This document shows, piece by piece, positions 12,632 to 48,831 of a DNA stretch of 64,000 bases. The notes beneath the pieces are model-generated. The model did not search any database, was not told the origin of the DNA, and worked only from the letters and a program-made list of their open reading frames with translations. The DNA is from Iphione sp. A-MEVVRFRX5 (lineage: Eukaryota). The stretch spans positions 14,694,001 through 14,758,000 of the forward strand of contig OZ320320.1 of the NCBI GenBank assembly GCA_976226885.1, in the 5' to 3' direction. The position numbers were made by a program, and so were the translations under genes. Numbering within the stretch: the first letter of the stretch is position 1; each line of letters starts with the position of its first letter.

Positions 12632-13186
12632 ATGTGGGCGTCACCGCATCTCCCTTTCATAGAGGATGTCGCAGAAACTGCCAATCGGTGTGTGGCGTAC
12701 GCTGGTGCGCAGACACGCTCCACTCCAGCATGTAGAACGTGGCCACACGGGCAGGGACACGGGTTACTGCCGACGCCGCCAGTCTCGTACTTGTGCCTGA
12801 CAAAGACATTCGATCGACCTGGACGCCACCTGCATACTGGCTGGGTGCCTCTGTGGGTGTCTGACTCCCTACAAGATGTGGTGGCTTTGGCTCCTCATTC
12901 TGATGTGCATTTTGTAGCTGCATCAGTAAGGCAGAGAAGAGTGGAGGTGTCGGACGACGGGCAGGAGACGACAGCAGACGAAGGGGCGCGAGCTGAGGAT
13001 CTCCGCGTCACGGTTTCAGCAGTTGCAGGCAAGGGCACCCCCGATCCAACCGAGGGCCGGTCAGAAGAGAGACCAGGGACCATCATCCCTATCCCCAGAC
13101 GAAAGCGACAGCAGGTGTCGGCGCACGAGGCACTGATGAGCGAGGCGTTGGGGCGCAAGAGACGAAGGAGCGAGGCAATCCTATAA
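12632..13186 (+). CDS. Hypothetical 184-aa leader ORF of the provirus, with a basic C-terminus
   Basis: Longest ORF between PBS and gag, with PRRKR and RKRRR clusters. No recognised domain. Confidence 0.3.
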   Translation: MWASPHLPFIEDVAETANRCVAYAGAQTRSTPACRTWPHGQGHGLLPTPPVSYLCLTKTFDRPGRHLHTGWVPLWVSDSLQDVVALAPHSDVHFVAASVRQRRVEVSDDGQETTADEGARAEDLRVTVSAVAGKGTPDPTEGRSEERPGTIIPIPRRKRQQVSAHEALMSEALGRKRRRSEAIL

Positions 13187-13493
13187 GTGCATCGGGAAGG
13201 ACGGATGTCGCTGGCCGATGCGCAGATAGTGTGGCGGATGGGCGTAGCGTGAGGAAACCGGAGGACACCGCCACCCGAATTGCGGCCAGGGGCGCCGATC
13301 TTCGACTAAGAACAACGATTGAAAAGAGAGACTATGATGCCGAAAAACAGAATGGACTTGCGACATTGCCAAGGTGAGCGGGAGTTATTTCTGTCCACAA
13401 TTGCCAACCAAGGGTGTTGGGGAATGAGGGCGGACTAGGGCAACTATGAGGGATGGTTGCTGAATTGTAGCTGGGCTGGGACCAGGGAGAGGT

Positions 13494-13652
13494 ATGGAGC
13501 CGCTTGTGTTGGGATGTATGATTGCTATGTTGATGCTGTTGTGTATATTTGTGTTTGCTATGGTAGCTATGACCTGTCGCATGTTGGCCTATGACCCGAT
13601 GGTAGTGACGAGAGCATTCCAGGATGAATCGAGGCCCATAACGCTGGTGTGA
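13494..13652 (+). CDS. 52-aa small single-pass membrane protein ORF upstream of gag
   Basis: MEPLVLGCMIAMLMLLCIFVFAMVAMTCRMLAYDPMVVTRAFQDESRPITLV*. It has an uncharged hydrophobic stretch of about 25 aa, an ATG in good context (GGTATGG), and ends 16 nt before the gag ATG. Too short for the ORF track. Confidence 0.55.
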   Translation: MEPLVLGCMIAMLMLLCIFVFAMVAMTCRMLAYDPMVVTRAFQDESRPITLV

Positions 13653-13668
13653 GGGGTGGAGGATCAGA

Positions 13669-14778
13669 ATGAACCGTGATGTCCGACCCTCGCGCTTCCA
13701 TATTCCACAGTTTCAATCTCCAGTTACCCCTCAGGGCGGCCTCTCGGATGTTGAGTGGGATGAACATGCACAGCCGGGACCTTCGGGAGGCGCAGATCGG
13801 TTCCCTGAAGGGCCTGCCAGTGGGATGAATCATAACTCTGAGGATGCTGCTTTACAACAGTGCTTTCAGGGCATTGATCGAAATTTGACTCGGGTGACAG
13901 ATAATTTAACATTACAAGGGGCTAGACAGGGTGTGACAACTTTTGATGGGAAACCAAAACACTTCAAGACGTGGATGAAGTCCATCGAACATGCCGCTCG
14001 GAGCTATGTGAGCGCACCGGGGGTGGCTGTTCGGTTTAAGCAAAAATTGGCACAGCTAACGGCGGAAGGGTCGGTAGCCGATTTTATTATTTGGTACCTG
14101 GAGGAACAAGACGATAATTTGCATCAACAACAGATGGGTGTTGATGAGCCGGTGCTGACGCCAGAAGTGTGGGTAGAATTCAAGGCTAGGCTGTCCCATT
14201 GTTTTGGAGAAGTCATTGACCCCGTTCATGCAAAGGGACTTCTAAGAAAGTGCAAATGGCGATCTGATGAAGCCGTGTACGTATATTCCGAACGACTATT
14301 AGATCTGGCTAAAGATGCATTTGATGAAGACGAGTTGCAACAACCAGCAGTGCAACTACAGATAGTTGAGTTCTTTGTGGACGGGTTGAAAAACCCTAAG
14401 GTAGCTAGGAAGGTCATACGTGAACGACCGACGCAGTTCATGGATGCAGTTAAAACAGCAGGAGGGGAGACGGAGGTTCTCCGATGTTTTACTCTGCGAG
14501 GCAGGGATGAGCACACTCCTATGGAAGTTGATGTAGTTGATGCAGAGAAAAAGCGGGTAATGTCCGGAGCATGTTACTGTTGTGGAAAGAAAGGTCATTT
14601 TGCTAAAAACTGTTTTGCAGCCAAGGGTAGACAGACAAGGGCTCAAGGGGGTAATCCTTCGATGGCTGGGGCAGAGGCCTCGAGGGTGAAGAAGGTCCAG
14701 TGCTACAATTGCAAAAAAATTGGGCACTACTAGTCCCAGTGCCCATCTAATAAGAATAACTCCTCTCAGGGGAATTAG
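13669..14778 (+). pseudogene. gag: Gag (capsid-like domain plus two CCHC knuckles); TAG at 14731-14733 interrupts the second knuckle
   Basis: FDG...W, PMEVD, CYCCGKKGHFAKNC and CYNCKKIGHY*SQC motifs. The frame continues to the likely natural end QGN* at 14776-14778. Confidence 0.9.
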
Positions 14779-14792
14779 GTCTCTAGAACAGG

Positions 14793-17700
14793 ATGTTGGG
14801 AATGGAACGACCAACGATTAAAATTCAAGTGGGGCCCTTTGGGTATCGGGCTCTGTTGGATACTGGTGCAGATGTGTCGATTGTGCGAGAGGATATATAC
14901 CAACTGTTGAAACGAAAAGGGTTGGCCCGAGATGTGGTTGATGTACCCACCACGCTTAAGAGTGTGGGGGGCAGGGTGCTGGAGCAACGGGGTGTAGCTC
15001 GGATTGTGTTCCGAATACAACAAACCCACTTTGAGGTGGACTTTCGGGTGTTGACGAAGACCCGACACACCTTCATTCTTGGGTGGGATTGGTTGAGCCG
15101 ACACTCTGTACAGCTTATCCCGGGTCAGCAGAAGGTAAGATGTGGTCATTTAACGATACCCATGATAGGGGAAGAAAAACTGGGAACCTTGGTCAGGGCC
15201 GTTGACAGTTCTGTCATCCCTAGTGGTACGATGGTGCTGCAGGGGAGACGACTGTTAAGAGATCCCGATGATGAGGGGGCTCTGGCTATTGTCACGAGCT
15301 CCCAGGAGGGGCCTTTGTCTAGGGAGCCCGGAGTGATGATTGCAAATTGTTTAACTTCCCATTTGAACGGAGACATACCCATGGTTGTCGTGAATGCCAC
15401 TACTCGCACAATTGCCATTAGAACGGGCAATGTGATAGCCAGGTTGGAGGGAGTGAGAGACGAGGCGGTACAAGAGATCAGCCTTATACAGTCTAACCCA
15501 GGGCCGACAGAGAGAATGATTCCAGAGGCAGCTACTACATTAGAAGAGTTGTTAGCACTAAACGAGGATCTTTTCGCAGCGTCCGACATAGAGTTAGGAC
15601 GAACCCACCTCCTTACGATGGACATTGATACGGGGTTACACGCCCCTATAGCGCAGAAACCCTACCATACTCCGCTTTTGCGTCAAGGAGTAGTGGAAGA
15701 AAAGATTCAAGGCATGTTGGATGCAGGTATTATACAGCCAAGCCATAGTCCGTGGGCGTCACCGATTGTTTTAGTGGAAAAGAAGGATGGCAGCCAACGG
15801 TTCTGTGTGGATTATAGGAAGGTTAATGACGTGACCTCCAAGTTTAATTGGCCACTTCCACGCATTGATGACATTTTGGCGAGGTTGGGCGGTAGCACCT
15901 GCTTCTCTACGCTTGATTTGAGGAGTGGATATCATCAGGTGCCCATGAATGAAACCTCCCGGCCTAAAACGGCATTCGCTTGCCATGCAGGGTTATTTGA
16001 GTTTAACGTCATGCCTTTTGGGTTGTGTAATGCTCCAAGCGTGTTCTGCAAATTAATGGCAAAAGTATTAGATGGGATAAATGGCACGTTTACCACCGCA
16101 TATATAGATGATATTTTGATCTGGTCTCCAGACGAAGCTATGCACTTGTGCCACTTGCAAATGGTTTTTGACCGGTTAAGGCAGGCAGGCCTGAAACTGA
16201 AGTGCTCTAAGTATGAGTTTTTCACATCGCGAATTCGATACTTGGGACACGTTGTGACCCCAGAGGGCATGCAACCGGATATGGAGAAGGTGGAGAGTAT
16301 TGCCGAACTCGATCCACCTCGAGACGTGAAGGGGGTGCGGTCCTTTATAGGGATGGCTAGTTTCTATAGGCGATATGTGCCCACCTTCGCGTCGATTGCT
16401 GAACCCCTTATTGCCATGACCCGGAAACATGCGGAGTTCATGTGGACTGACGAGTGCCAGTCCGCCCGTGAACAGCTGAAGGATAGATTAACTCACCCCC
16501 CTGTTTTGGCGTTCCCGAGATTCGATCGAATCTTCATCTTGTATACTGATGCAAGCGACACTTGCATAGGGGCAGTTTGGGCCCAAGAGTTTGAAGACGG
16601 TGAACGTCCCATACAGTATATGTCACATCATTTGAGTGATACCCAACGAAGCTGGCCCGTGATTGAAAAGGAAGGGTATGCCATTGTGTCAGCCATTCGC
16701 AAGTTCCGCTCGTACTTATACGGACATAGGTTCATTGTCAGAACAGACCATAAACCTTTGCAATTTTTGTTTAAGTCTGAACAAAAGAACGCTAAAGTGC
16801 AGCGTTGGGCTATGCAACTGTCCGAGTACAACTGCAAAATTGAATATATCCCCGGGAAGCAGAATATTCCCGCTGATACCTTGAGTAGGCTCTGGTCCAA
16901 GCGCAATGAAGGCGTGTCCACGGAAGAATTGGCTCCAGTGGAAGGGACGGATACAGACGAGGAGTCAGGGGCCCTTAATGACTCTTCCTCTGTTCAGGGC
17001 CAGGAGAGTGAGCATCCGAATACTCCCAAGACCGACTTGGAGGGAGAGGACGTACCACTGATTCGCGAAACGGACGTGCGAGATGTAGATATGGCAAGGG
17101 CACAGGCGCAGGATCCTGAATGCCAGCGGTTAAAGGAAGGGCCAAAATTTGTGTGACTAGAAGGATTGTGGTACTATGTGAGCAAGCGTCCGGAAGCTTG
17201 CTTGCGAGTAGTGGTACCACAGGTGTTCCATAATACAGTATTGGATCAGCAACACGATCGAATGGGGCACATGGGGATTGATAAAATGTATGATCGCATA
17301 CGCGGACTGTATTACTGGAAAAATCTGTATGTAGACGTAGTGAAATATATCAGGCGATGTGTGGAATGTAACACGCGGAACCTGAGGAGGCAGCTGAGAC
17401 CGCTGCAAGAAATGGAGAGTATTGTCTTTCCGTTTCAGAAGGTCGCAGTTGACACATGTGGGCTGTATCCCGAGTCCAAGGCGGGGTATAAGTATGTGTT
17501 GTCCTTGATCGATGTCTATTCCGGATGGCCAGAGTTGTTCCCTATGAGGGATAAGAGGGCCATGATGGTCGCACAGATCCTAGCGACGGACATTATACCC
17601 AGACACAGATGTCCTGTGGTATTATTGTCAGACAATGGGACGGAATTTGTTAACGAAGTGGTCGCAGGACTCTGTAAGGAACTCGGCGTTGTGCGTATCA

Positions 17701-18308
17701 CCACTAGTCCGTACCATCCAGCGGCAAACGGTAAGGTCCAGCGCATGCACCGAGTGTGGAATGATATCGTGGCTAAGTTGACGTTGAGCGATATGGCGCA
17801 CTGGGAGGAGGTGGTTCCCTCAGCTTTGTTGGCCATGCGTATGAGTACGAATGAGTCAACTAAGTATACCCCTTTTTACTTGCTGCATGCAAGGGACCCA
17901 GTGTTGCCTTTGGACACATTGCTCCAACCCCGTATGCGGTATTACGGGGAGGAACACCATAAATTGGCGGTGCAACGACACCACCAGGCCATGACAGTGG
18001 TACGCCACAATGTCGCTAAGGTGCGGCAACGCATGAAGAAGTATCATGACAAACGTGCCACTGATGTGTCCTTTGAGGTGGGGGATCCTGTTTATATACA
18101 GAACCCCCTCCGGAAGCATAAGCTGGATATGAGATGGCGGCCATATCATCGTATTGTAGAGTGCTTGTCGCCGGTCAACTTTGTGGTCAAGGATCAGATA
18201 ATGGGGAAGTTAAGTAAGGTCCACAGTGATCGTCTTCGGTTAGCAGACCTGGACTGGAGGCTTCTGCAGAAACGCGAAGAGACCGCGCCGGCGTGTTGCT
18301 TTAGCTGA
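14793..18308 (+). pseudogene. pol: Pol: protease, RT, RNase H, integrase; in-frame TGA at 17154-17156
   Basis: PR LLDTGAD; RT PWASPIVLV, CVDYRKVN, YIDD; RH YTDAS, TDHKPL, ADTLSR; IN HDRMGH...CVEC, VDT, SDNGTEF. The third catalytic position reads Q (VQRMHR). Pol is in the -1 frame relative to gag, with a TAG at 14784-14786 just upstream of the ATG. Confidence 0.93.
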
Positions 18309-18327
18309 CAGTCCCTCTCCATCTGAC

Positions 18328-18948
18328 TTGGACTCAGCGGAGGAGGATGGGTCCGAAAGTGGTTCGGAGTTCTCTTCGGAAGATGAAATCCCATTAGCCC
18401 AGTTGTTTGGAAGAGAACGGCAGCATGACGTGCTGCAGGCTATCAACCCCAATCCCGAGGGGGAAGGGAGGGTTGAGGTGGAGGGCCCCACGGGAAGCGC
18501 AAGTCCACCGAGACAGGTGCATGGTCCTGTGGTTCATCATGAAAACCCTGACTCGGTGGCCGCGAGTCAAGGCGGAGGGTCAGGAGGGTTGCAAGACCAT
18601 GTGGAAGGACAACCCGAACCAGCTGTTCCGACCTTGACAGCTGTTGACCCGATGGATATCCTGCAGAGTACAGAGAGAGGGGAAGTAAGTAGTCAGGCTG
18701 TGGTAAAACCTAGGGTAGAGGGCCACGGGTTGGCATCCTACCGAACAAGATCAGTGGTCAAGCGGGAGCAAAGCATGATGGATGAGCTACCGCCAGTAGA
18801 AAAACGAGCTAGGTCTGACCAACAAGTGGTTGTTGTGGAGGAAGAAATTAGTCAAACAATGGATGCATTAGTTGATGTGTTAGCACAGTTAGATGAAGTG
18901 GCTGATGTATTGTGTGCTGCATTGAAAATAGAGAAGAGTGAACCATGA
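18328..18948 (+). CDS. Acidic low-complexity ORF, probably the frameshifted C-terminal tail of Pol
   Basis: Its frame is open back to about 18280, overlapping the end of IN. Restoring 2 nt in GAAGAGAC would fuse it to IN. It is in frame with env and separated from it by TGA TTA. Confidence 0.5.
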   Translation: MDSAEEDGSESGSEFSSEDEIPLAQLFGRERQHDVLQAINPNPEGEGRVEVEGPTGSASPPRQVHGPVVHHENPDSVAASQGGGSGGLQDHVEGQPEPAVPTLTAVDPMDILQSTERGEVSSQAVVKPRVEGHGLASYRTRSVVKREQSMMDELPPVEKRARSDQQVVVVEEEISQTMDALVDVLAQLDEVADVLCAALKIEKSEP

Positions 18949-18951
18949 TTA

Positions 18952-21132
18952 ATGCGGTGCTCTTCTTTGGTTCCAGGTGGCCTCTTGGTTCTGGTGTTGT
19001 TGTCGTGGGTTGGCCAATCGCAGGAAGGCTCCTTGGAAAATGTGATCTTCAAAAAGAGGTTGGATGTGAGGTCGGTATTGTCCACTTGGCGGATTGATCT
19101 GGTGTCGGAGTACGATCAGTACAAGAAAACCAGCTATGATTTGCAAGAACAACTGAACGAGACTCGACATGGGTTCTTAAAGACGGCGTATTTGGTTATG
19201 CCGCCACGTCACCGTTATGGGAACCGTATGCGTACGGAAACTGTCACGCGAACCCTGATGAGGTCACAGTTGGATCGAGCGGATGTATTGTTAGATCAAA
19301 TACATCTGAGCCTGCAGCGGATTAACAACATAGCGCGGCTCAGGGTACAGACTCGGCGTATTCCGTTTGCTACGGTTCATGACCCTGCTTTGAACCGTAC
19401 GAGGCATAGGAGGAAACGTGCAGTCATGGTGGCAGCTGTGGCCGGTCTTATCACCTTGGTCTCTGGCACCGCTACTGGTTTCGGTGTGGTGGGAAATGAG
19501 ATCCATGTTATCAAACACCGAGTAGGACAAATGGAGAGACAACAGCTGGAGATGTTGACTATCATGGGGGACATGATGACTATTATCAACCAAACTCGGA
19601 TGGATATCAGGCGCAACCGAGATGGTATTAATGACGTGATGCATAAGTTGCAATTGGTAGAAGGAGACTTATGGGAGGCTTTACAGCAAGCTAGCAATAT
19701 CACTGCTAAGGAGATACAATACATACACACCATCCTGAACGCCGAACAATATTTCTCACAGTTTGAGTATCAGGTGTCGGCTTGGGAGGGTGCAGTTGGC
19801 CAACTTGAGGCCCGAGTGGATCATCTGTTAGGGGGGCATTTGACACCGGAGGTCGTTCCGGCTACTGAATTAAAGGAGCTGCTCGCCAATGTGGCCCGGC
19901 AGTTGCCTCCAACACTCCAACTGCCATTCGATCCCGATGATGTATGGAGCTATTATAGTACTTTGGAGACAACTACCATCATCTTCGAGGGCCGTATTAT
20001 TACTTCCGTGAGTGTTTCGCTGATCGACCCTATGGCTTCTTATATGATGTATGAAGCTGTGAATATTCCTGTTCCCATACAGGCGGGTCAAGCCATACAA
20101 TTCCGACTAGAGTTTACGTATTTCGGAATAACTAAGGATAGGAGACGTTATGCTATCGCGACTACGGAGGAACTAGTTAGGTGTCAGTTACGAAAAGGTT
20201 CCTGTCTTGTCTCCTCCCCGGTGTATGAACTAAACATGCATTCTTATTGCGTTATGGCAATCTTCCGAGGGGAGGTGGAACGTGTTCGCGAACTGTGTCA
20301 GCGAATTGTGTTGGACAATGTATCTATGCCACAGGCACCATACTTGGATAGAGGCAATTGGGTAGTAACCACACCTGTGGACTTGACCTTACGGATTCAG
20401 TGTGTAAATGGTACTACATATCAGCGAAATGTACCTGTGCCTTTTGCGTTGGTAAACCTGCCGAACGGTTGTGGAGCCGTGGGGGACCAAATGTCCCTGC
20501 CGACTTACTATCAGCAGAGAAGCGAATATGAGGTAGAGCGAGACCCTGTTGTTCTACCCTCTGGATTGGTGGTGAACGAACTTATGGTTTGGACCCCAAA
20601 TCTGCCCGAGGCTTCCAATCACACGGCGAACTTGCATCCGCTTCTGGCGTTGTTGGAATCAGACATGGCAGACATCATGCAACATATCAATAACTTACAT
20701 GACTGAGTGGCTGACAATCCCTTGTTGCCGGGTACGTCAGTGACCTCTACTATCATCTGGGCATTAGGAGGACTGAGTTCGGCGTTGACTTTGGGAATGT
20801 GCTGTTATTGCTGCTTGTGTAAGAAGGGAAGATGGAGGCGCTTAGCTCAGCAAGCACCTATGGGGCCGCGGGGGTCGGGAAACGGGTCGGCTCCCATTAC
20901 AATTAATTTGGGGGAAACCAGTTCTAAAGATAGCCCTGAACGAGTGCGACCCACTAACGCTGCCCTTACGTATGCTATTCCACCCCTGCCTGAGCCTGAA
21001 AGAGTAGTGCCTGAGTGTGCTGTCCGTTTGTCCAATGGACCGTCCCAACAGCTTGAAGTTTTCAGACCAGAGGGCAATGTGGGGGCGCATGCAACGGCCC
21101 CCAGGAAGTATCCCTTCTCTGTATTTCAATAG
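18952..21132 (+). pseudogene. env: Envelope, class I fusion glycoprotein (baculovirus F / errantivirus Env-like); in-frame TGA at 20704-20706 before the TM anchor
   Basis: Signal-like N-terminus, furin site RRKR (19408-19419), hydrophobic fusion peptide AVMVAAVAGLITLVSGTATGFGVVG, heptad-rich region, Cys-rich block and 7 ectodomain N-glycosylation sequons. The same frame continues (20707-21132) into a TM segment IIWALGGLSSALTLGMCCYCCLC followed by KKGRWRR. About 726 codons in total. Confidence 0.88.
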
Positions 21133-21946
21133 ATGGGTTGAGGTACATGGTTGGCGGGTGGAGAGAAGATCTCCCGCTCAAGATGTGCTGTTGTTATGGT
21201 ATTGTCGACGGGAGTTTCAGACCAGTGGGTCTTTTGCTCAAAATGTGTTGTTGTTGCTGTTATTCTTAAAAGAATGATACAGTATCAAAAAAAAAAATAT
21301 ATATATATACATTGAGTGTATTCAACGAATGTTGTGTCATGTAATGTGTGTGTGTAACTACATTTAACTGTTCAATGAAGGTGTGATAGTCCAAGGACCA
21401 ACGGTAATGGATTGTAAGCGATTGTGTTACATATTGCCTGCTCGGAGGATATGATCGTTCAAGAGGTGTAAAGGGAAGTTAGCAACGGGAAGGCGCATGA
21501 CCATCATGGAAGATCGAGAGGACAGGGCTCCCAGTTGTACATATCGTTTTGGAGCACCCTCCTCTTGGCGCTCTATAGGGTATGGTCTGAGCCTTAGGGC
21601 CGCCATTCTTTTACTCTTTCCTAGGAAACCAAGATAAACTTCCAAAAGTGGGCCAGACACAAGTCTGTTACCCCTACCTGTGGAAGGTCTCTCATGGTCA
21701 GGTAGCGAGTCTGAGCTCGAATGTCCTTAGCTCTTGGTTTCCATTCTTGGTCAACTGACCCTCTATCTCTTTCCTTTCTTTTCCTTGGCCGGTTGTGGAA
21801 GTGATCGCATCCCTCAAAATGAACCACCTCTGTTTAGTATGCCAGTTGGGCAGAGGGCGGTTGGTCTGTTTGGTGAATGACCTCTCTTGAATGACCTCTC
21901 ATGAATGGCCTTCTCTCAAAGGCCTTGTAATGAGAATATTACTCTC

Positions 21947-21960
21947 AAGGAGGGGAGGGA
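21947..21960 (+). promoter_or_regulatory. Polypurine tract
   Basis: AAGGAGGGGAGGGA directly abuts the 3' LTR. Confidence 0.9.
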
Positions 21961-22438
21961 TGTGACACAGTACGGTTATAAGTTAAGAACATATGCATGT
22001 GAAAAGGGATGTACTGTGTCTATATAGTGTACAGTTATACGCAGTAAAGAAGGGCCTTTTACTGGTGACGCAGTTTAAAATTTTTCGCTTGGCGTACGTG
22101 ATGCCTAAAGTGTAAACAGGTTGATCCTTATCTTGTTAACGAAGTGGCTATTACAATTAACAAGGTATTATCAGCAATGAGCACGTGATACTGTAACCAG
22201 TTGGAGTCGACACAATGGTTGATCAATCGTGTGCTGTCTAACGAGACATCCGCTGTTGATAACACAGCAAGTTTCGCATATTTTCGTTAGCGTGTTTACG
22301 TCACTAAGTTGTATATAAGGATTGACGTGCGCGTCCCTAGTTGGGATCCGCCTGAGACGACCGTGTAACCTGTGTTGCTGCGTTTCTGCAATAAAGGCCG
22401 GACGATTGAAGAACCTGCTTGTGGTGTCTTTTGTTACA
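21961..22438 (+). repeat. 3' LTR
   Basis: 478-bp copy of 12093-12570, followed by the TSD ACAT. Confidence 0.97.
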
Positions 22439-38223: not shown

Positions 38224-41025
38224 CAGGACAAGATTCCTGCAATTGAATTCTATGTTAGCAACAATAACATTGACATTCTGGCTATACAGGAAACCTGGCT
38301 CAATTGTCAATACCCAAATAATATCTTACAAATAAAAGGATATTCCTTCTTCAGGCATGATAGAAGTATTGAGAACAAGAATGGCAACACAACCAAAGGA
38401 GGGGGTGGGTTAGCTATTTATGTAAAAGAGCTATACAACATCAACCTGGAAAAATATCAACACCTGAACATCTCAGATGAAAACATTGAGATTCAGTGTC
38501 TTGAGATTAAACCAGGCAACTGGAAAACTTCAATTGTAATCAATGTGTATAGACCTCCCAGTGGAGCAACGAATATATTCCTAAGCAAAATCACTGACAT
38601 CTTGTCCAAACTAAACCATAACAGGGACATTATACTGCTAGGGGATATTAACATTGATTTACTAAAGAAAGATAGGTTATCAGAGAGAATGACGTCGCTG
38701 TTGATGAACTTTGGACTTAAGAATCACATTAATAGTCCCACAAGAACCACGGATAAAACATCTACTCTCATAGATATTATAGCGACAAATTGCCAACATA
38801 TATCGGGTAGTGGAACCTCAGCCTGGAACATATCAGACCACTGCACCACCTGGATAATAAAAAAGTTTAAAAAATCTAACAAATTAATAGCATCGAAAAA
38901 GATCACAATAACGAAGATTGCAGATGTCAATGATGAGGAAATAAAGGGTGAACTTGATAGCAAAAACTGGTATGGTCTATACAACAGCAACAATGCTGAT
39001 GAATGCTGGGCTGAATACCATAAGAATCTTTGCTCAGTAGCTGAAAAATATACAACCACACAAACAATTACTGTCAAGAAGGAAAAACAACCCTGGATCA
39101 CAAAATCACTCCTATGCTTTATTAGACTAAAAAACTACTATATAAGACAAAACAAAATACGAGATTGCCAGGATACACAAAATATATATATCTACCTACG
39201 AAACTCAGTATCCTATACTATCAAAAGAGCCAAAGGTTTTTATCTACGAAGACAACTCAGCAATACTAAGAAACAGCCTAAACGTTTCTGGAATACGCTG
39301 AATAATGTACTTGGGAGAGCCAAAAAGAGTAGTGAAGATATCAAGCTTATAGCAGATGATAGGTGCTACGATGGGGCAGCAGTATCTGACATACTAAATG
39401 AGCACTTCACTGGAATTGCAAGAAAAAAACTAAATGAAGCAGGAATTGACACATCAGTAAATAATTTGGATACACCTGATAACTCAGATATTCCTGAATT
39501 CCGTCTTACACCTAGCACAATGAGTGAAATAGTGGAAGTAGTCAGAGCAATCAATACAAACAAAGCCTCCAATATACCAGGTTTACCTATTAAATTGCTG
39601 AAGACGCTGCTCAGGTTGAGTCTCAATCAATTGAGACATGTAATCAACCTAAGCCTTGAAAAGAATTCCTTTCCAACAGAATGGAAAGAAGCGATAGTTA
39701 AGCCATTACACAAGGGAGGTAACAAAATGTCGGCAAACAACTATAGGCCAATTTCTCTTCTCCCATTAATGTCAAAGCTAATCGAACGTATAGTGTTCAA
39801 CCAACTATACTCTCACCTTGAGAAACACTCACTACTAAACCAATTTCAATTTGGTTTCAGAAAAGGGAGAAACACACAGAATGCTATCCACAGAGTATTA
39901 AACGATCTGTATTACAGCTACAACAGTAATCAGTATAGCTCAGTCTTATTTGTAGATCTGTGCAAAGCATTCGACACTGTGAACATTGATCTATTGATCT
40001 ACAAGCTAGAAAAATACTTTAGGTTCTCTGTAAACACCATCAAATGGTTTAGGTCATTCCTACTACAGCGGAAACAGTGTTGTCATGTCAATGGACACCA
40101 GTCAAACTATGCAAACACAACCTTTGGAGTACCTCAAGGGTCAACCTTAGGCCCCTTGCTCTTCTCAATGTATATTAACGACCTACCACTGAACATAGAA
40201 TGTAACGCAACATTATTCGCAGATGATACAATCCTGATATGCAGTGATACACGCCTAGAGAAGGTGCACAACAGGATGACCAACTGTAGCACTCAACTTG
40301 AGAATTGGTGTAAGAAAAATCAACTGATAGTCAATACCTCAAAAACAAAGTGTATGTTAATCTCTCCATCCAAGAAAGACATTGATACCGATACCATTAA
40401 GTTAAAAATTAATGGTGGGGAGGTTGAATATGTACACGAATATAGGTATCTAGGCATAGTCATTGATGATGAGCTATCTCTAAGAAAGCATACTGAATAT
40501 CTTGTAAAGAAACTCCTAGTACAGTGCTATTCTCTATCGAAAGTCAGGTACCAGCTCACAGAATATGCCTTCATTACTGTCTACAAAACATTGATGCTAC
40601 CCTTGATCGACTACTGTCTGGCATTTACTACGTGCATACCTTCCTCTATGGTAACTAGATTACAAAGACTGCAAAACAGGACCCTACATCTGGCTTATCA
40701 AACAAACCACAAGAATGCAAATCTAGACACTGATAGTTTACACCACTACTATAACATCATGAAAATTACTGTGAGAAGAAAAGTAGCAATCGTTGACCTA
40801 ATGTACAAATCGATCCCCCTGAACATTGCAAAAAGAAGGACAACTTGTAATAACCTCAGAATAGAAGATGGCCCTGCTTTCTACCAACCGATCCCAAAAA
40901 CAACCAAGATAAGAAACTCGATAATATTCCAAGGACCGACTGTCTGGAATAATCTTGATCCACTAATCAGAAATATCAATGATAGAAATCAATTACTCTC
41001 TGTGTGCAAATCAATTATGACATAA
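38224..41025 (+). CDS. LINE ORF2: AP endonuclease plus reverse transcriptase (open frame of about 933 codons)
   Basis: The frame is open from 38224, upstream of the tracked start. APE motifs DILAIQETWL, RHDR, GGGLAIYV, VYRPP, LGDINID, STLIDII, SDH. RT motifs NYRPISLL, QFGFR, DLCKAFDTV, GVPQGSTLGPLLF, FADD, YLG. Confidence 0.9.
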   Translation, partial: QDKIPAIEFYVSNNNIDILAIQETWLNCQYPNNILQIKGYSFFRHDRSIENKNGNTTKGGGGLAIYVKELYNINLEKYQHLNISDENIEIQCLEIKPGNWKTSIVINVYRPPSGATNIFLSKITDILSKLNHNRDIILLGDINIDLLKKDRLSERMTSLLMNFGLKNHINSPTRTTDKTSTLIDIIATNCQHISGSGTSAWNISDHCTTWIIKKFKKSNKLIASKKITITKIADVNDEEIKGELDSKNWYGLYNSNNADECWAEYHKNLCSVAEKYTTTQTITVKKEKQPWITKSLLCFIRLKNYYIRQNKIRDCQDTQNIYIYLRNSVSYTIKRAKGFYLRRQLSNTKKQPKRFWNTLNNVLGRAKKSSEDIKLIADDRCYDGAAVSDILNEHFTGIARKKLNEAGIDTSVNNLDTPDNSDIPEFRLTPSTMSEIVEVVRAINTNKASNIPGLPIKLLKTLLRLSLNQLRHVINLSLEKNSFPTEWKEAIVKPLHKGGNKMSANNYRPISLLPLMSKLIERIVFNQLYSHLEKHSLLNQFQFGFRKGRNTQNAIHRVLNDLYYSYNSNQYSSVLFVDLCKAFDTVNIDLLIYKLEKYFRFSVNTIKWFRSFLLQRKQCCHVNGHQSNYANTTFGVPQGSTLGPLLFSMYINDLPLNIECNATLFADDTILICSDTRLEKVHNRMTNCSTQLENWCKKNQLIVNTSKTKCMLISPSKKDIDTDTIKLKINGGEVEYVHEYRYLGIVIDDELSLRKHTEYLVKKLLVQCYSLSKVRYQLTEYAFITVYKTLMLPLIDYCLAFTTCIPSSMVTRLQRLQNRTLHLAYQTNHKNANLDTDSLHHYYNIMKITVRRKVAIVDLMYKSIPLNIAKRRTTCNNLRIEDGPAFYQPIPKTTKIRNSIIFQGPTVWNNLDPLIRNINDRNQLLSVCKSIMT

Positions 41026-46100: not shown

Positions 46101-46359
46101 TATTCTACCACAGTCGAGATCCTACCGGTGAAGGCAAACCAGGCTTGGTGCTCGTCTATTCTCTAGTTGTTGAGCATGGTTTTGTCTGAGCATCTGGTTC
46201 CCTCCTCGCTATATTACTTTCAATTGTATGGCCGTGTTCCATGCGGTACTGCAGACCTAATCAGCGTCACATTGGATTAGATCCGCCCGTGGTGGTGGTG
46301 GTGGTGATTTGTTGCGTCCCCCAACCGTGCCTGGTTGCTGTACAGAGCTGCTTGTAACA

Positions 46360-46590
46360 GTTGCTTCCCGCCTGCGTGCCTCGGTGAACATGTTGTTTCC
46401 CGCCTGTGTGCCTGGTTGAACATGTTGTTTCCCGCCCGTGTGCCTGGGTGAACAGGTTGTTTTCCACCTATGTGCCTGGATGAACATGATGTTTCCCAGC
46501 TGCATGCCTGGTTGAACATGTTCTTTCCCGCCTGTGTGCCTCGGTGGACATATGACTTCCGGCCTGCGTGCCTGGGTGGACGTGTTTTCA
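46360..46590. repeat. About 32-bp minisatellite (TGAACATGTTGTTTCCCGCCTGTGTGCCTGG)
   Basis: About 7 diverged tandem units. Confidence 0.8.
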
Positions 46591-48831
46591 ACATGTTCGG
46601 AGGAGTCGGTAATCCAGCACATCATGACGTCGGTGTTACGTTCCTTTCTCTACAGGTGAAGGCGCGGACTGAATTTGATGCGTTCATCAACCATGCTCTA
46701 GTCATTGCAGTTGGAGCATCATAGGTAATCATCAGAAATGTCTTCGAATTGTTCAGACATTCACCGTGTTCTGGAGTGTTATAGGTGATCATGAAATGTG
46801 TTAATCATCTTCATACTGTGACCCAATTTTAGGCCAGACTTTTGGATCTCGAATTGTCGGATAAGTCTTCGGGTACGGAGAAGATAAGGTTCATGGCATT
46901 TCAAGCAGCGGTTGCAGGGCATGTTTATGACTAACATAGCATTGGACAAGCTGAGTATGGTAATGATTCAAGTAATAAAGAGATCCAGGCAGGTAGATCT
47001 GGTTCACTCCCAGCACACAACGTATAGGTGTCTGTTCATTCAACATTCCAATCCCTGCCGTATATACATCTGATGCCCCAACTGCTTTCCTGACAGTGTC
47101 AATATTTTAACATTTGGCAACATTGCAAATAAGGAGCTGGCCTGGGAACTCTTACCAGAACACTGGACTACCAGACCTCTTAATTGGGGAGTACAAGAGT
47201 GCTAGAGCAAGTCTTACAGGGTTGAACAAATCACATCTTACAAGGTAAGGTGTGATGTTTTCAACACTGTATAATGTGTAGTCAGCTGATGAGCTATGGA
47301 TGCAAGCCAGAAGGGTAGAGAACTTGCAATAACCAACTCCAACATGGAGAAATCTGGTTCACTCCACTGCAGACCTCTGATGGATGTAACTCTCTCCAAA
47401 TACAAAGCGAGAATGTCTGTTTATTCATAAAGTTTTGCCTTTTATATACAGTCTGAGCCCTTATGGCTTGCACAATACCTCGATGTCACAATAGGTACAG
47501 CATAATTAATTACTTCAATCACTCCAGCAATCTGACATCCTTTCTATCAGGCAAAGCATATGTCGGATTACCAAGTGTTGGACAAATAGATTGGACAGTG
47601 GTGTCAGATTTCTGGTCCTACACTAAGCATCTGCCACAACTGTAAGGACCATGTATAGGACATATAACAATCTTGCCACACACTTGAGGATGTTATTTTC
47701 CTTAATATATTGTATTCCTTTTTTCGGTCAAGCAATGTTATCTTGTGGGGCTTCTTAAAATCTTAAGATAAAACCTATCCTAAGGAGGGTTTAGATTTAA
47801 AAAGGGTCATATGCCTTTATACATTTCATTATTTCCTTTTGACACTTAATACCACCAACCACATATACCAAAAACTTAGATATATTACTTTCCAATATTG
47901 CTTATCATAAAATATTCCGTATCGAAGGAAAATACTTTGTGAACACCATTTCCAATACAATAAAGGCTGGTCCTGCACGTTCCTTCTGGGGTTAAAGAAG
48001 TATTATTTTAATTCAAAATCTGTTGTTCTATGTGTATTGGGTGTATCTTTAGGTTTGGAGGAATATTGATGTGACCTCCTTTAAATTTTTAAATCTTCCA
48101 TGTAACTCTGTGTCTCGGTGTCTATACCACCTCCCATTACCACCCAAAGGTCAGCAACGGCTCGCACACCACGCATGCGCAGTTCTATTACATGTCCAAT
48201 TGGGCCCTTTTGGATTCATTGGTTACGGCGGATGCCCTGGTATACTTCACACAGAGAGACAGGCATCTATCTTCGAGGGACAAATATACGTGTAGACGTC
48301 AGAATTCCCAGAATCATACATGTAATATTGGGATGCACTGAAAAACTAATTCAAAATACGCCCATGGAAGAATCAATTAATTTCCGCCCGTTATGCCACG
48401 CGATGTTATATTTCGTCGTGTCATCAAACAACACACGTGACATAGAACATCCGACGTAGTAACCTGTACGGTATGGAACTACGTACGCTCACTAACACAC
48501 ACCGGGGTAAACCCACATACAAGAACACAAACATACCCCCCCCCGAACACAATAATCCACCACTAAACACACACACACACAGATGCGTGCCCACAGACAA
48601 ATGAACCAGTGGGGCTGGGTAAACTGGTACAACAATGACTGACGTATCGCTTCCCCCCATGCCTCTCAACAAAGAACACTTAGTATAAACCATATTCACA
48701 ATAGTAACCACCAATCAAAGATCGGACGTAGACATCCATTCCTCCTCTCCTACGTAACCACCGAAACACACACCCTGTAAAGCATCGAGAGGCGATATAA
48801 TGTCAGAACAAAGGCCAGGGCGCAACGCTAC

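Follow-up and report, generated by a model that had tools for sequence, protein, structure and literature searches.

A predicted spliced subgenomic env mRNA in a degraded env-carrying Ty3/gypsy element of Iphione sp.

The window studied here (the whole 64,000-nucleotide stretch of DNA) carries at 12093-22438 a 10.3-kb Ty3/gypsy LTR element with gag, pol and an F-type env, all three of which are broken in this copy. The element has the paired LTRs, target-site duplication, primer-binding site (PBS) and polypurine tract of a Ty3/gypsy LTR retrotransposon, and the Pfam domains of pol follow the Ty3/gypsy order protease-RT-RNase H-integrase. No second copy or solo LTR of the family was found within the 64-kb window. 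This locus is best explained as the decayed remnant of a Ty3/gypsy element with env, probably of the ancient-errantivirus type. Its features are all on the forward strand:

12089-12092, target-site duplication ACAT (4 nt), with ACAT again directly after the 3' LTR
12093-12570, +, 5' LTR, 478 nt, TG...CA
12444, +, TATA-like box within the 5' LTR
12475-13373, +, inferred exon 1 of the env mRNA, about 900 nt, its 5' end inferred from the TATA-like box
12522, +, AATAAA within the 5' LTR
12586-12597, +, PBS for tRNA-His(GUG), 15 nt after the LTR
13334-13373, +, predicted coding part of exon 1, 13 codons plus 1 nt (40 nt), phase 1
13371-13379, +, predicted splice donor AAG/GTGAGC, intron from 13374, phase 1
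13669-14733, +, gag with zinc knuckle, the second knuckle cut by the stop 14731-14733
14787-18948, +, pol (protease, RT, RNase H, integrase)
18949-18976, +, branch-point-like TTAAT, pyrimidine tract and CAG of the predicted acceptor
18977-21135, +, predicted env exon 2 (signal-peptide core, furin-type site, fusion-peptide-like stretch, F-type ectodomain, membrane anchor, tail)
21948-21960, +, polypurine tract
21961-22438, +, 3' LTR, 10 differences from the 5' LTR over 478 nt

For comparison we took nine loci (L001-L009) from a second metagenome scan and excluded L009, in which the 5' end of env is missing, leaving eight; locus scans of viral contigs, genome contigs and the first metagenome set found no relatives. 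The env genes of these relatives are distant (24-29% identity), and five of the eight carry one contig-name prefix and are therefore not independent. The gag of our element is 33% identical to that of L001. In pol, the reading frame is broken by the stop 17154-17156 and by a frame change past the integrase, and searches returned only generic Ty3/gypsy matches at 31-46% identity. The acidic tail at 18244-18948 had no tblastn match, and is taken as the putative C-terminus of pol because the pol of the relatives extends to just before env. A 184-codon ORF in the leader (12632-13186) gave no Pfam match, no usable Atlas match and no tblastn match in L001-L009.

Several approaches point to an F-type fusogen as the product of env. 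Against the Pfam family Baculo_F, the protein scores E 2.5e-5 and 23.5 bits, just under the curated cut-off of 24.1, and its structure model (pLDDT 73.6) matches the F proteins of RSV, hPIV3 and NDV (best E 2.9e-9, for RSV/hPIV3 F; TM 0.3-0.45), while its sequence had no match in the PDB. A word-indexed protein search found no match among 7999 candidates; a full HMMER search gave 1201. The furin-type motif at 151 and six ectodomain cysteines are all at least 90% conserved in 40 sequences, and the hydrophobic core of the signal peptide occupies ORF residues 11-18. Env thus has the make-up of an errantivirus env, namely an F-type fusogen ORF after pol with signal peptide, furin site, fusion peptide, cysteines and anchor, the anchor lying behind the stop 20704-20706, because of which this copy cannot yield a membrane-anchored Env. 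All five of the named env relatives among 20 looked up come from molluscs. The closest Env relatives are P0035 (53%) and P0001/P0151 (39-45%), whose called starts are uninformative because gene callers may use non-ATG starts. A limpet gene model with a gag-env fusion (P0100), probably an automatic prediction, was set aside.

The initial annotation had proposed that env is expressed by joining an ATG at 13334, through a donor at 13373/13374, to an acceptor at 18976/18977 with TTAAT 25 nt upstream; every coordinate is right, as are the env frame and the phase, which is 1 at both sites. We scored splice sites with rounded matrices, which are approximate and not trained on the host, and used the observed scores as thresholds. 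The donor, with these simple matrices, ranks second among 687 GTs on the plus strand of 12093-21960 and is the best in the leader, and none of 549 minus-strand donors reaches its score. Shuffling the leader produced a donor this good in 147 of 1000 cases, and one with an open phase-1 ATG in 49 of 1000. By itself the agreement in phase is weak evidence, since in 317 of 1000 shuffles the top-scoring donor likewise came with an open phase-1 ATG. The donor is moderately above chance, and it is the sole strong one in the leader, in the right phase, 295 nt upstream of the first gag ATG.

The acceptor clearly exceeds chance expectation. It splits an env codon behind its first base, ranks third among 698 AGs (same strand, interval and simple matrices) and is equalled by none of 490 on the minus strand; dinucleotide shuffling of 18800-19010 gave an acceptor this good in 4 of 1000 cases, and shuffling of the 130-nt search span did so in 1 of 500. 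The next in-frame Met of env after 18977 is ORF residue 84, past the signal peptide; if this acceptor is used, the start must therefore come from an upstream coding exon. Such an exon could provide three in-frame ATGs (13334, 13337 and 13352) competing as starts, the context of 13352 being the best of the three (A at -3, G at +4). Without splicing, ATG 13334 opens a 34-codon uORF that ends at 13438. The claim that splicing "builds" the signal peptide is not borne out, as exon 1 would contribute only the start codon plus an n-region that is more basic, whereas exon 2 alone encodes the hydrophobic core and the cleavage region. The term "micro-exon" is to be given up: exon 1 probably runs for about 900 nt from an LTR cap site near 12475, and only its coding part measures 40 nt. 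Absent from the initial annotation were ATG 18952, the nine ATGs upstream of 13334, ATGs 13337 and 13352, and the stop 20704-20706.

Judging from these sites, we think it probable that env was expressed from a spliced subgenomic mRNA via 13373-18977, a known mechanism in a new element. In active ancestors, full-length RNA would have served for gag and pol, and splicing from 13373 to 18977 would have removed a 5.6-kb intron to give the subgenomic env mRNA. One of the three ATGs within the final 40 nt of exon 1 would serve as the start, with Met and the basic n-region supplied from there and the hydrophobic core and F-type fusogen from exon 2. With start and n-region in exon 1, env would thus not be made from unspliced RNA by simple scanning. 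Plain scanning to 13334 on the spliced RNA is also argued against, by the nine ATGs that precede it in exon 1, three of them with A at -3 and all with ORFs closed by 13252; ribosomes might get past them by reinitiation, internal entry or an extra leader splice.

The last of these options leads to an alternative that we consider unlikely, in which acceptor 18977 is used with another upstream structure, either an extra leader splice or another coding donor, e.g. within gag. An extra splice would lighten the burden of upstream ATGs: joining the weak donor 12628 (score 2.5) to the acceptor 13099 (4.6; another leader acceptor, at 12663, scores 5.7) would remove five of them and make 13099-13373 an internal exon. 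Donor 12628 lies 42 nt from the PBS start, compared with 71 nt for the L001 donor, but is weak and without an ATG upstream, and this three-exon form would keep 13373-18977 anyway. As to gag, elements of the idefix subclade use donors within it, but none of the gag donors here scores above 2.5. Improbable to a like degree is that env starts at its own ATG 18952, through a farther-upstream acceptor, internal initiation or reinitiation after the pol-tail stop, in which case the predicted sites would be partly coincidental. The unspliced ORF from this ATG already gives a plausible signal peptide with n-, h- and c-region, the pol-tail stop (18946-18948) is only 3 nt ahead, and seven of the eight relatives retain an ATG directly before the hydrophobic core. 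However, in the relatives this ATG is downstream of the acceptor, not upstream, whereas ATG 18952 overlaps the branch-point-like motif 25 nt upstream of a rank-3 acceptor and would be spliced out. It sits in a weak context (T at -3, C at +4), and no acceptor scoring above 0.44 lies between 18313 and this ATG. In L003, an in-frame ATG also overlaps the branch-like motif, yet the env ATG comes after the acceptor, so ATGs in this position can be by-products.

Two further readings seem to us very improbable. In avian sarcoma-leukosis viruses env shares its first codons with gag, and ATG 13334 could likewise be the true gag start, displaced by mutation. The degraded state of the copy and the 27 ATGs ahead of the first gag ATG would fit, but at least three breaks lie in the 335 nt between ATG 13334 and the gag frame, against an expectation of 0.14-0.18 at the break density of the coding region, and the resemblance to L001 gag sets in only at residue 56 of the ORF from 13669. 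Just as hard to believe, in our view, is a Pol-Env fusion product that arises when the stop 18946-18948 is read through. The pol tail and env do share one frame with this single stop between them, but such sharing has one chance in three, the pol and env frames differ in L001, L002 and L004, and an internal signal peptide behind Pol would be hard to square with secretion.

The placement of the predicted sites recurs in the relatives, in favour of a spliced env mRNA. Leader DNA is present in two of them, and in each the highest-scoring donor of the entire locus falls between PBS and gag (L001, rank 1 of 434, 33 nt ahead of the gag ATG; L004, rank 1 of 625, 53 nt ahead). All eight relatives have an acceptor-like AG 60-87 nt before the conserved post-signal-peptide motif, compared with 59 nt in our element, and these AGs rank 2-8 within their own loci; singly they are mostly weak, their scores being reached in 10, 26, 57, 64, 96, 105 and 111 of 500 shuffles. 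L001 and L004 resemble our element in that their PBS is of the His type, their best donor falls between PBS and gag and a strong acceptor closely precedes env, but differ from it in a short, non-coding leader exon, an env ATG 8-23 nt after the acceptor and an env only about 28% identical. In seven of the eight the env ATG follows the acceptor, and neither leader seen is coding, so a coding exon 1 is not a conserved trait; L007 has an ATG on neither side of the acceptor. The spliced env mRNA first proposed is thus supported in part, by its sequence logic and by the donor-before-gag and acceptor-before-env of the relatives, but not in its "micro-exon" and "builds" wording.

A parallel had been drawn with Drosophila gypsy and vertebrate retroviruses. 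In the latter, one splicing event joins the 5' leader to an acceptor where pol ends to yield the env mRNA, a design that the predicted junction would share, although these viruses belong to another RT lineage and have another Env class; in gammaretroviruses the env start codon is in exon 2, as in L001 and L004. Gypsy itself is a poorer parallel, its exon 1 giving only 2 coding nt. Closer are other Drosophila elements, in which a short coding exon ahead of gag matches the env exon in phase: their annotated coding parts measure 38 nt in ZAM, 42 in gypsy5, 29 in tirant and 44 in HMS-Beagle2 (Senti et al., 2025, PMC12992720), and the 40 nt predicted here would represent the same design. That of HMS-Beagle2 ends 272 nt before gag, compared with 295 nt. 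There are clear differences: the coding piece starts 15-23 nt past the LTR end in ZAM, gypsy5 and tirant but 763 nt past it, behind nine ATGs, in our element, and all four are insect errantiviruses, with the ZAM and gypsy5 junctions marked as Sanger-verified (PMC12992720), whereas our junction is predicted.

By its tRNA-His primer site, our element is in keeping with the "ancient errantiviruses" found in molluscs, annelids and barnacles, F-type ENV elements that share with it the order LTR-gag-pol-env, the furin site and a His(GUG) PBS spaced from the LTR (Chary and Hayashi, 2026, PMC13524379). Our PBS matches the His_GUG PBS in supplement 1 of that survey at 12 of 12 positions, and L001 carries the same one. 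Among the matches listed, 16 of 17 pure His_GUG rows are ENV_F elements of annelids, molluscs or barnacles, and the LTR-PBS gap is 0-21 nt (15 nt here). This PBS type supports, without defining, the assignment; the clade itself is marked by its place in a tree of the POL RT/connection region and by a "mini" domain that comes after RNase H in the bridge region. The survey, with its 1512 elements, took intact ones, unlike our copy, which is broken in all three genes. Its main text is silent on env expression in these animal-wide env-carrying Ty3/gypsy elements, with no occurrence of "splic" or "subgenomic".

We see about even chances for a wider reading, in which non-insect elements of mollusc/annelid type share a donor between PBS and gag and a pre-env acceptor, spliced env mRNA is as old as the errantiviruses, and the env start codon has shifted between exons, lying in exon 2 in L001, L004 and most relatives and in exon 1 in our element and probably L007, in parallel to ZAM and Beagle. 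If so, surveys that insist on an env ORF beginning with ATG would annotate members of this kind wrongly or overlook them. As the mechanism is established for insect errantiviruses, it would not surprise specialists, and the value lies in its extension: the sites here and in the relatives make the testable prediction of the same single-splice design as in fly elements and retroviruses. They are also a warning that what is annotated as the N-terminus of such Env proteins may be intron sequence.

The predicted env splice sites lie within an LTR element at 12093-22438 of the window that is a Ty3/gypsy errantivirus and probably a member of the ancient errantivirus clade. It has two LTRs of 478 nt each (differing at 10 positions, ends TG...CA), a flanking target-site duplication (ACAT), a polypurine tract and a primer-binding site (PBS) 15 nt past the end of the 5' LTR, matching tRNA-His(GUG) at 12 of 12 nt. 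By Pfam, gag carries a zinc knuckle, and pol encodes protease, RT, RNase H and integrase, arranged as in Ty3/gypsy elements. The third ORF, env, matches Baculo_F slightly below the cut-off (E 2.5e-5), and its structure model (pLDDT 73.6) resembles F structures of pneumoviruses and paramyxoviruses (best E 2.9e-9). This copy is disrupted: gag has a stop at 14731, pol one at 17154 and env one at 20704, ahead of the membrane anchor, and the frame changes downstream of integrase; an anchored Env cannot be made from it.

Based on sequence prediction, the best explanation for Env translation, and one that we consider fairly likely, is a spliced env mRNA with its start codon in the leader exon, joining donor 13374 to acceptor 18977 (both phase 1). 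The first in-frame Met downstream of 18977 is env ORF residue 84, so secreted Env from an mRNA using this acceptor would require an upstream start. Env's own ATG (18952) has a weak context and overlaps the branch-like TTAAT, and no good acceptor was found upstream of it (best score 0.44, after 18313). In the leader, the best start context among the in-frame ATGs 13334, 13337 and 13352 is that of 13352. The initial annotation had described a leader micro-exon starting at 13334, a description that has to be abandoned: given a TATA-like box at 12444, exon 1 is expected to measure ~900 nt, with nine ATGs ahead of 13334, every ORF of which is closed by 13252. The idea that this exon builds the signal peptide is not supported: exon 1 would supply only the Met and n-region, and the hydrophobic core sits in exon 2. 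The n-region holds 3 K/R among 13 residues in the spliced form and 1 among 8 in the unspliced form. That ATG 13334 is instead a displaced gag start is unlikely, at least three breaks being required versus 0.14-0.18 expected.

The splice-site coordinates first proposed were all correct on re-check. Scored with rounded, approximate splice-site matrices and ranked across 12093-21960, donor 13374 is second of 687 and acceptor 18977 third of 698; on the opposite strand, 0 of 549 donors and 0 of 490 acceptors attain the scores of these sites. Shuffling gave an acceptor as good as 18977 in 4/1000 cases, a donor as good as 13374 in 147/1000, such a donor plus an open phase-1 ATG in 49/1000, and a best donor with the phase match alone in 317/1000, chance figures that are indicative only because the shuffle and rank thresholds are the observed scores themselves. 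Among leader donors, 13374 is top at 6.25, with three open in-frame ATGs ahead of it; the runner-up (3.72) lacks an open ATG in any phase. Higher-scoring sites on the + strand are acceptor 21625, which lies past env but short of the 3' LTR and is followed by no long ORF, and acceptor 16998 and donor 15135, both within pol.

One metagenome scan yielded nine related loci (L001-L009), two of which (L001, L004) contain the leader; identity to the window's element is 24-29% in env and 38-46% in pol where matched. L001 shares the His PBS, and its top donor of 434 lies 33 nt ahead of the gag ATG. L004 is a circularly permuted contig, and its top donor of 625 precedes gag by 53 nt. The leader exon of both would be non-coding, since stops close the ATGs upstream of the donor (judged by eye in L004). 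An acceptor-like AG lies 60-87 nt ahead of a conserved post-signal-peptide motif in 8/8 loci having an env 5' end (ranks 2/651, 8/492, 5/413, 3/686, 6/175, 2/191, 2/60 and 3/153), with CTAAT 24-27 nt upstream in three of the seven loci tested. Among the seven loci shuffled (all but L004), only L001 (10/500 shuffles) and L006 (26/500) have singly outstanding acceptors; in the other five, 57-111 of 500 shuffles attain the score. Five loci have one contig-name prefix in common, which counts against the relatives' evidence. From this placement of sites, and because the env ATG follows the acceptor in 7/8 loci, the splice architecture looks clade-wide and a coding exon 1 looks like a minority state. 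L007 resembles the window's element, as no ATG lies on either side of its acceptor. Two relatives carry additional sequence between env and the 3' LTR, of which the window's element has none:

L003 4384-5081 and L004 1367-2407: extra ORFs and short tandem repeats

The annotated coding parts of exon 1 measure 38 nt in ZAM, 42 in gypsy5, 29 in tirant and 44 in HMS-Beagle2 (Senti et al., 2025; PMC12992720). The predicted splicing would work as env splicing does in ZAM and Beagle. Elements of this kind have been described across animals in a paper whose main text, by term search, does not contain "splic"; among the matches listed from its errantivirus table, 16 of 17 pure His_GUG rows belong to F-type elements from annelid, mollusc or barnacle hosts (Chary and Hayashi, 2026; PMC13524379). 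Literature listings, which covered few subscription papers, showed no paper on splicing of env in errantiviruses of molluscs or annelids; this does not prove that none exists. Among 20 Env relatives looked up, 5/5 of those named are molluscan.

The leader and the start of gag hold further features:

13494-13652, + strand: predicted 52-codon ORF, good start context, long hydrophobic stretch
12632-13186, + strand: 184-codon leader ORF, weak start context
13711 and 13735, + strand: two acceptor-like sites slightly inside the gag ORF

The 52-codon ORF ends 17 nt short of the first gag ATG, within the predicted env intron. It may encode a small membrane protein, for which the short fusogenic ORFs reported from fly elements lacking env would be a parallel, or it could be a chance product of TG-rich sequence. 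The 184-codon ORF has no support from Pfam, Atlas or tblastn. Sites 13711 and 13735 precede a second ATG, at about 13825, from which point the ORF resembles L001 gag. With 27 ATGs ahead of gag ATG 13669, gag may be translated from a spliced mRNA or by internal initiation.

Elsewhere in the window we found:

27037-31267, + strand: tyrosine-recombinase retroelement with gag-like, RT/RNase H and recombinase ORFs
38224-41025, + strand: open LINE-type ORF of 933 codons, endonuclease and RT
57702-58448, + strand: 248-codon ORF without a Pfam match, resembling a non-LTR element's C-terminal end
5897-6240 and 52977-53321: dispersed repeat pair, 93% alike
60493-61195 and 46328-46615: minisatellites with 33-nt and 32-nt units, respectively

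The tyrosine-recombinase retroelement has split direct repeats (27037-27176 = 31051-31190; a second near 31000-31050 and 31217-31267), a layout that we take to be that of Ngaro-type elements.
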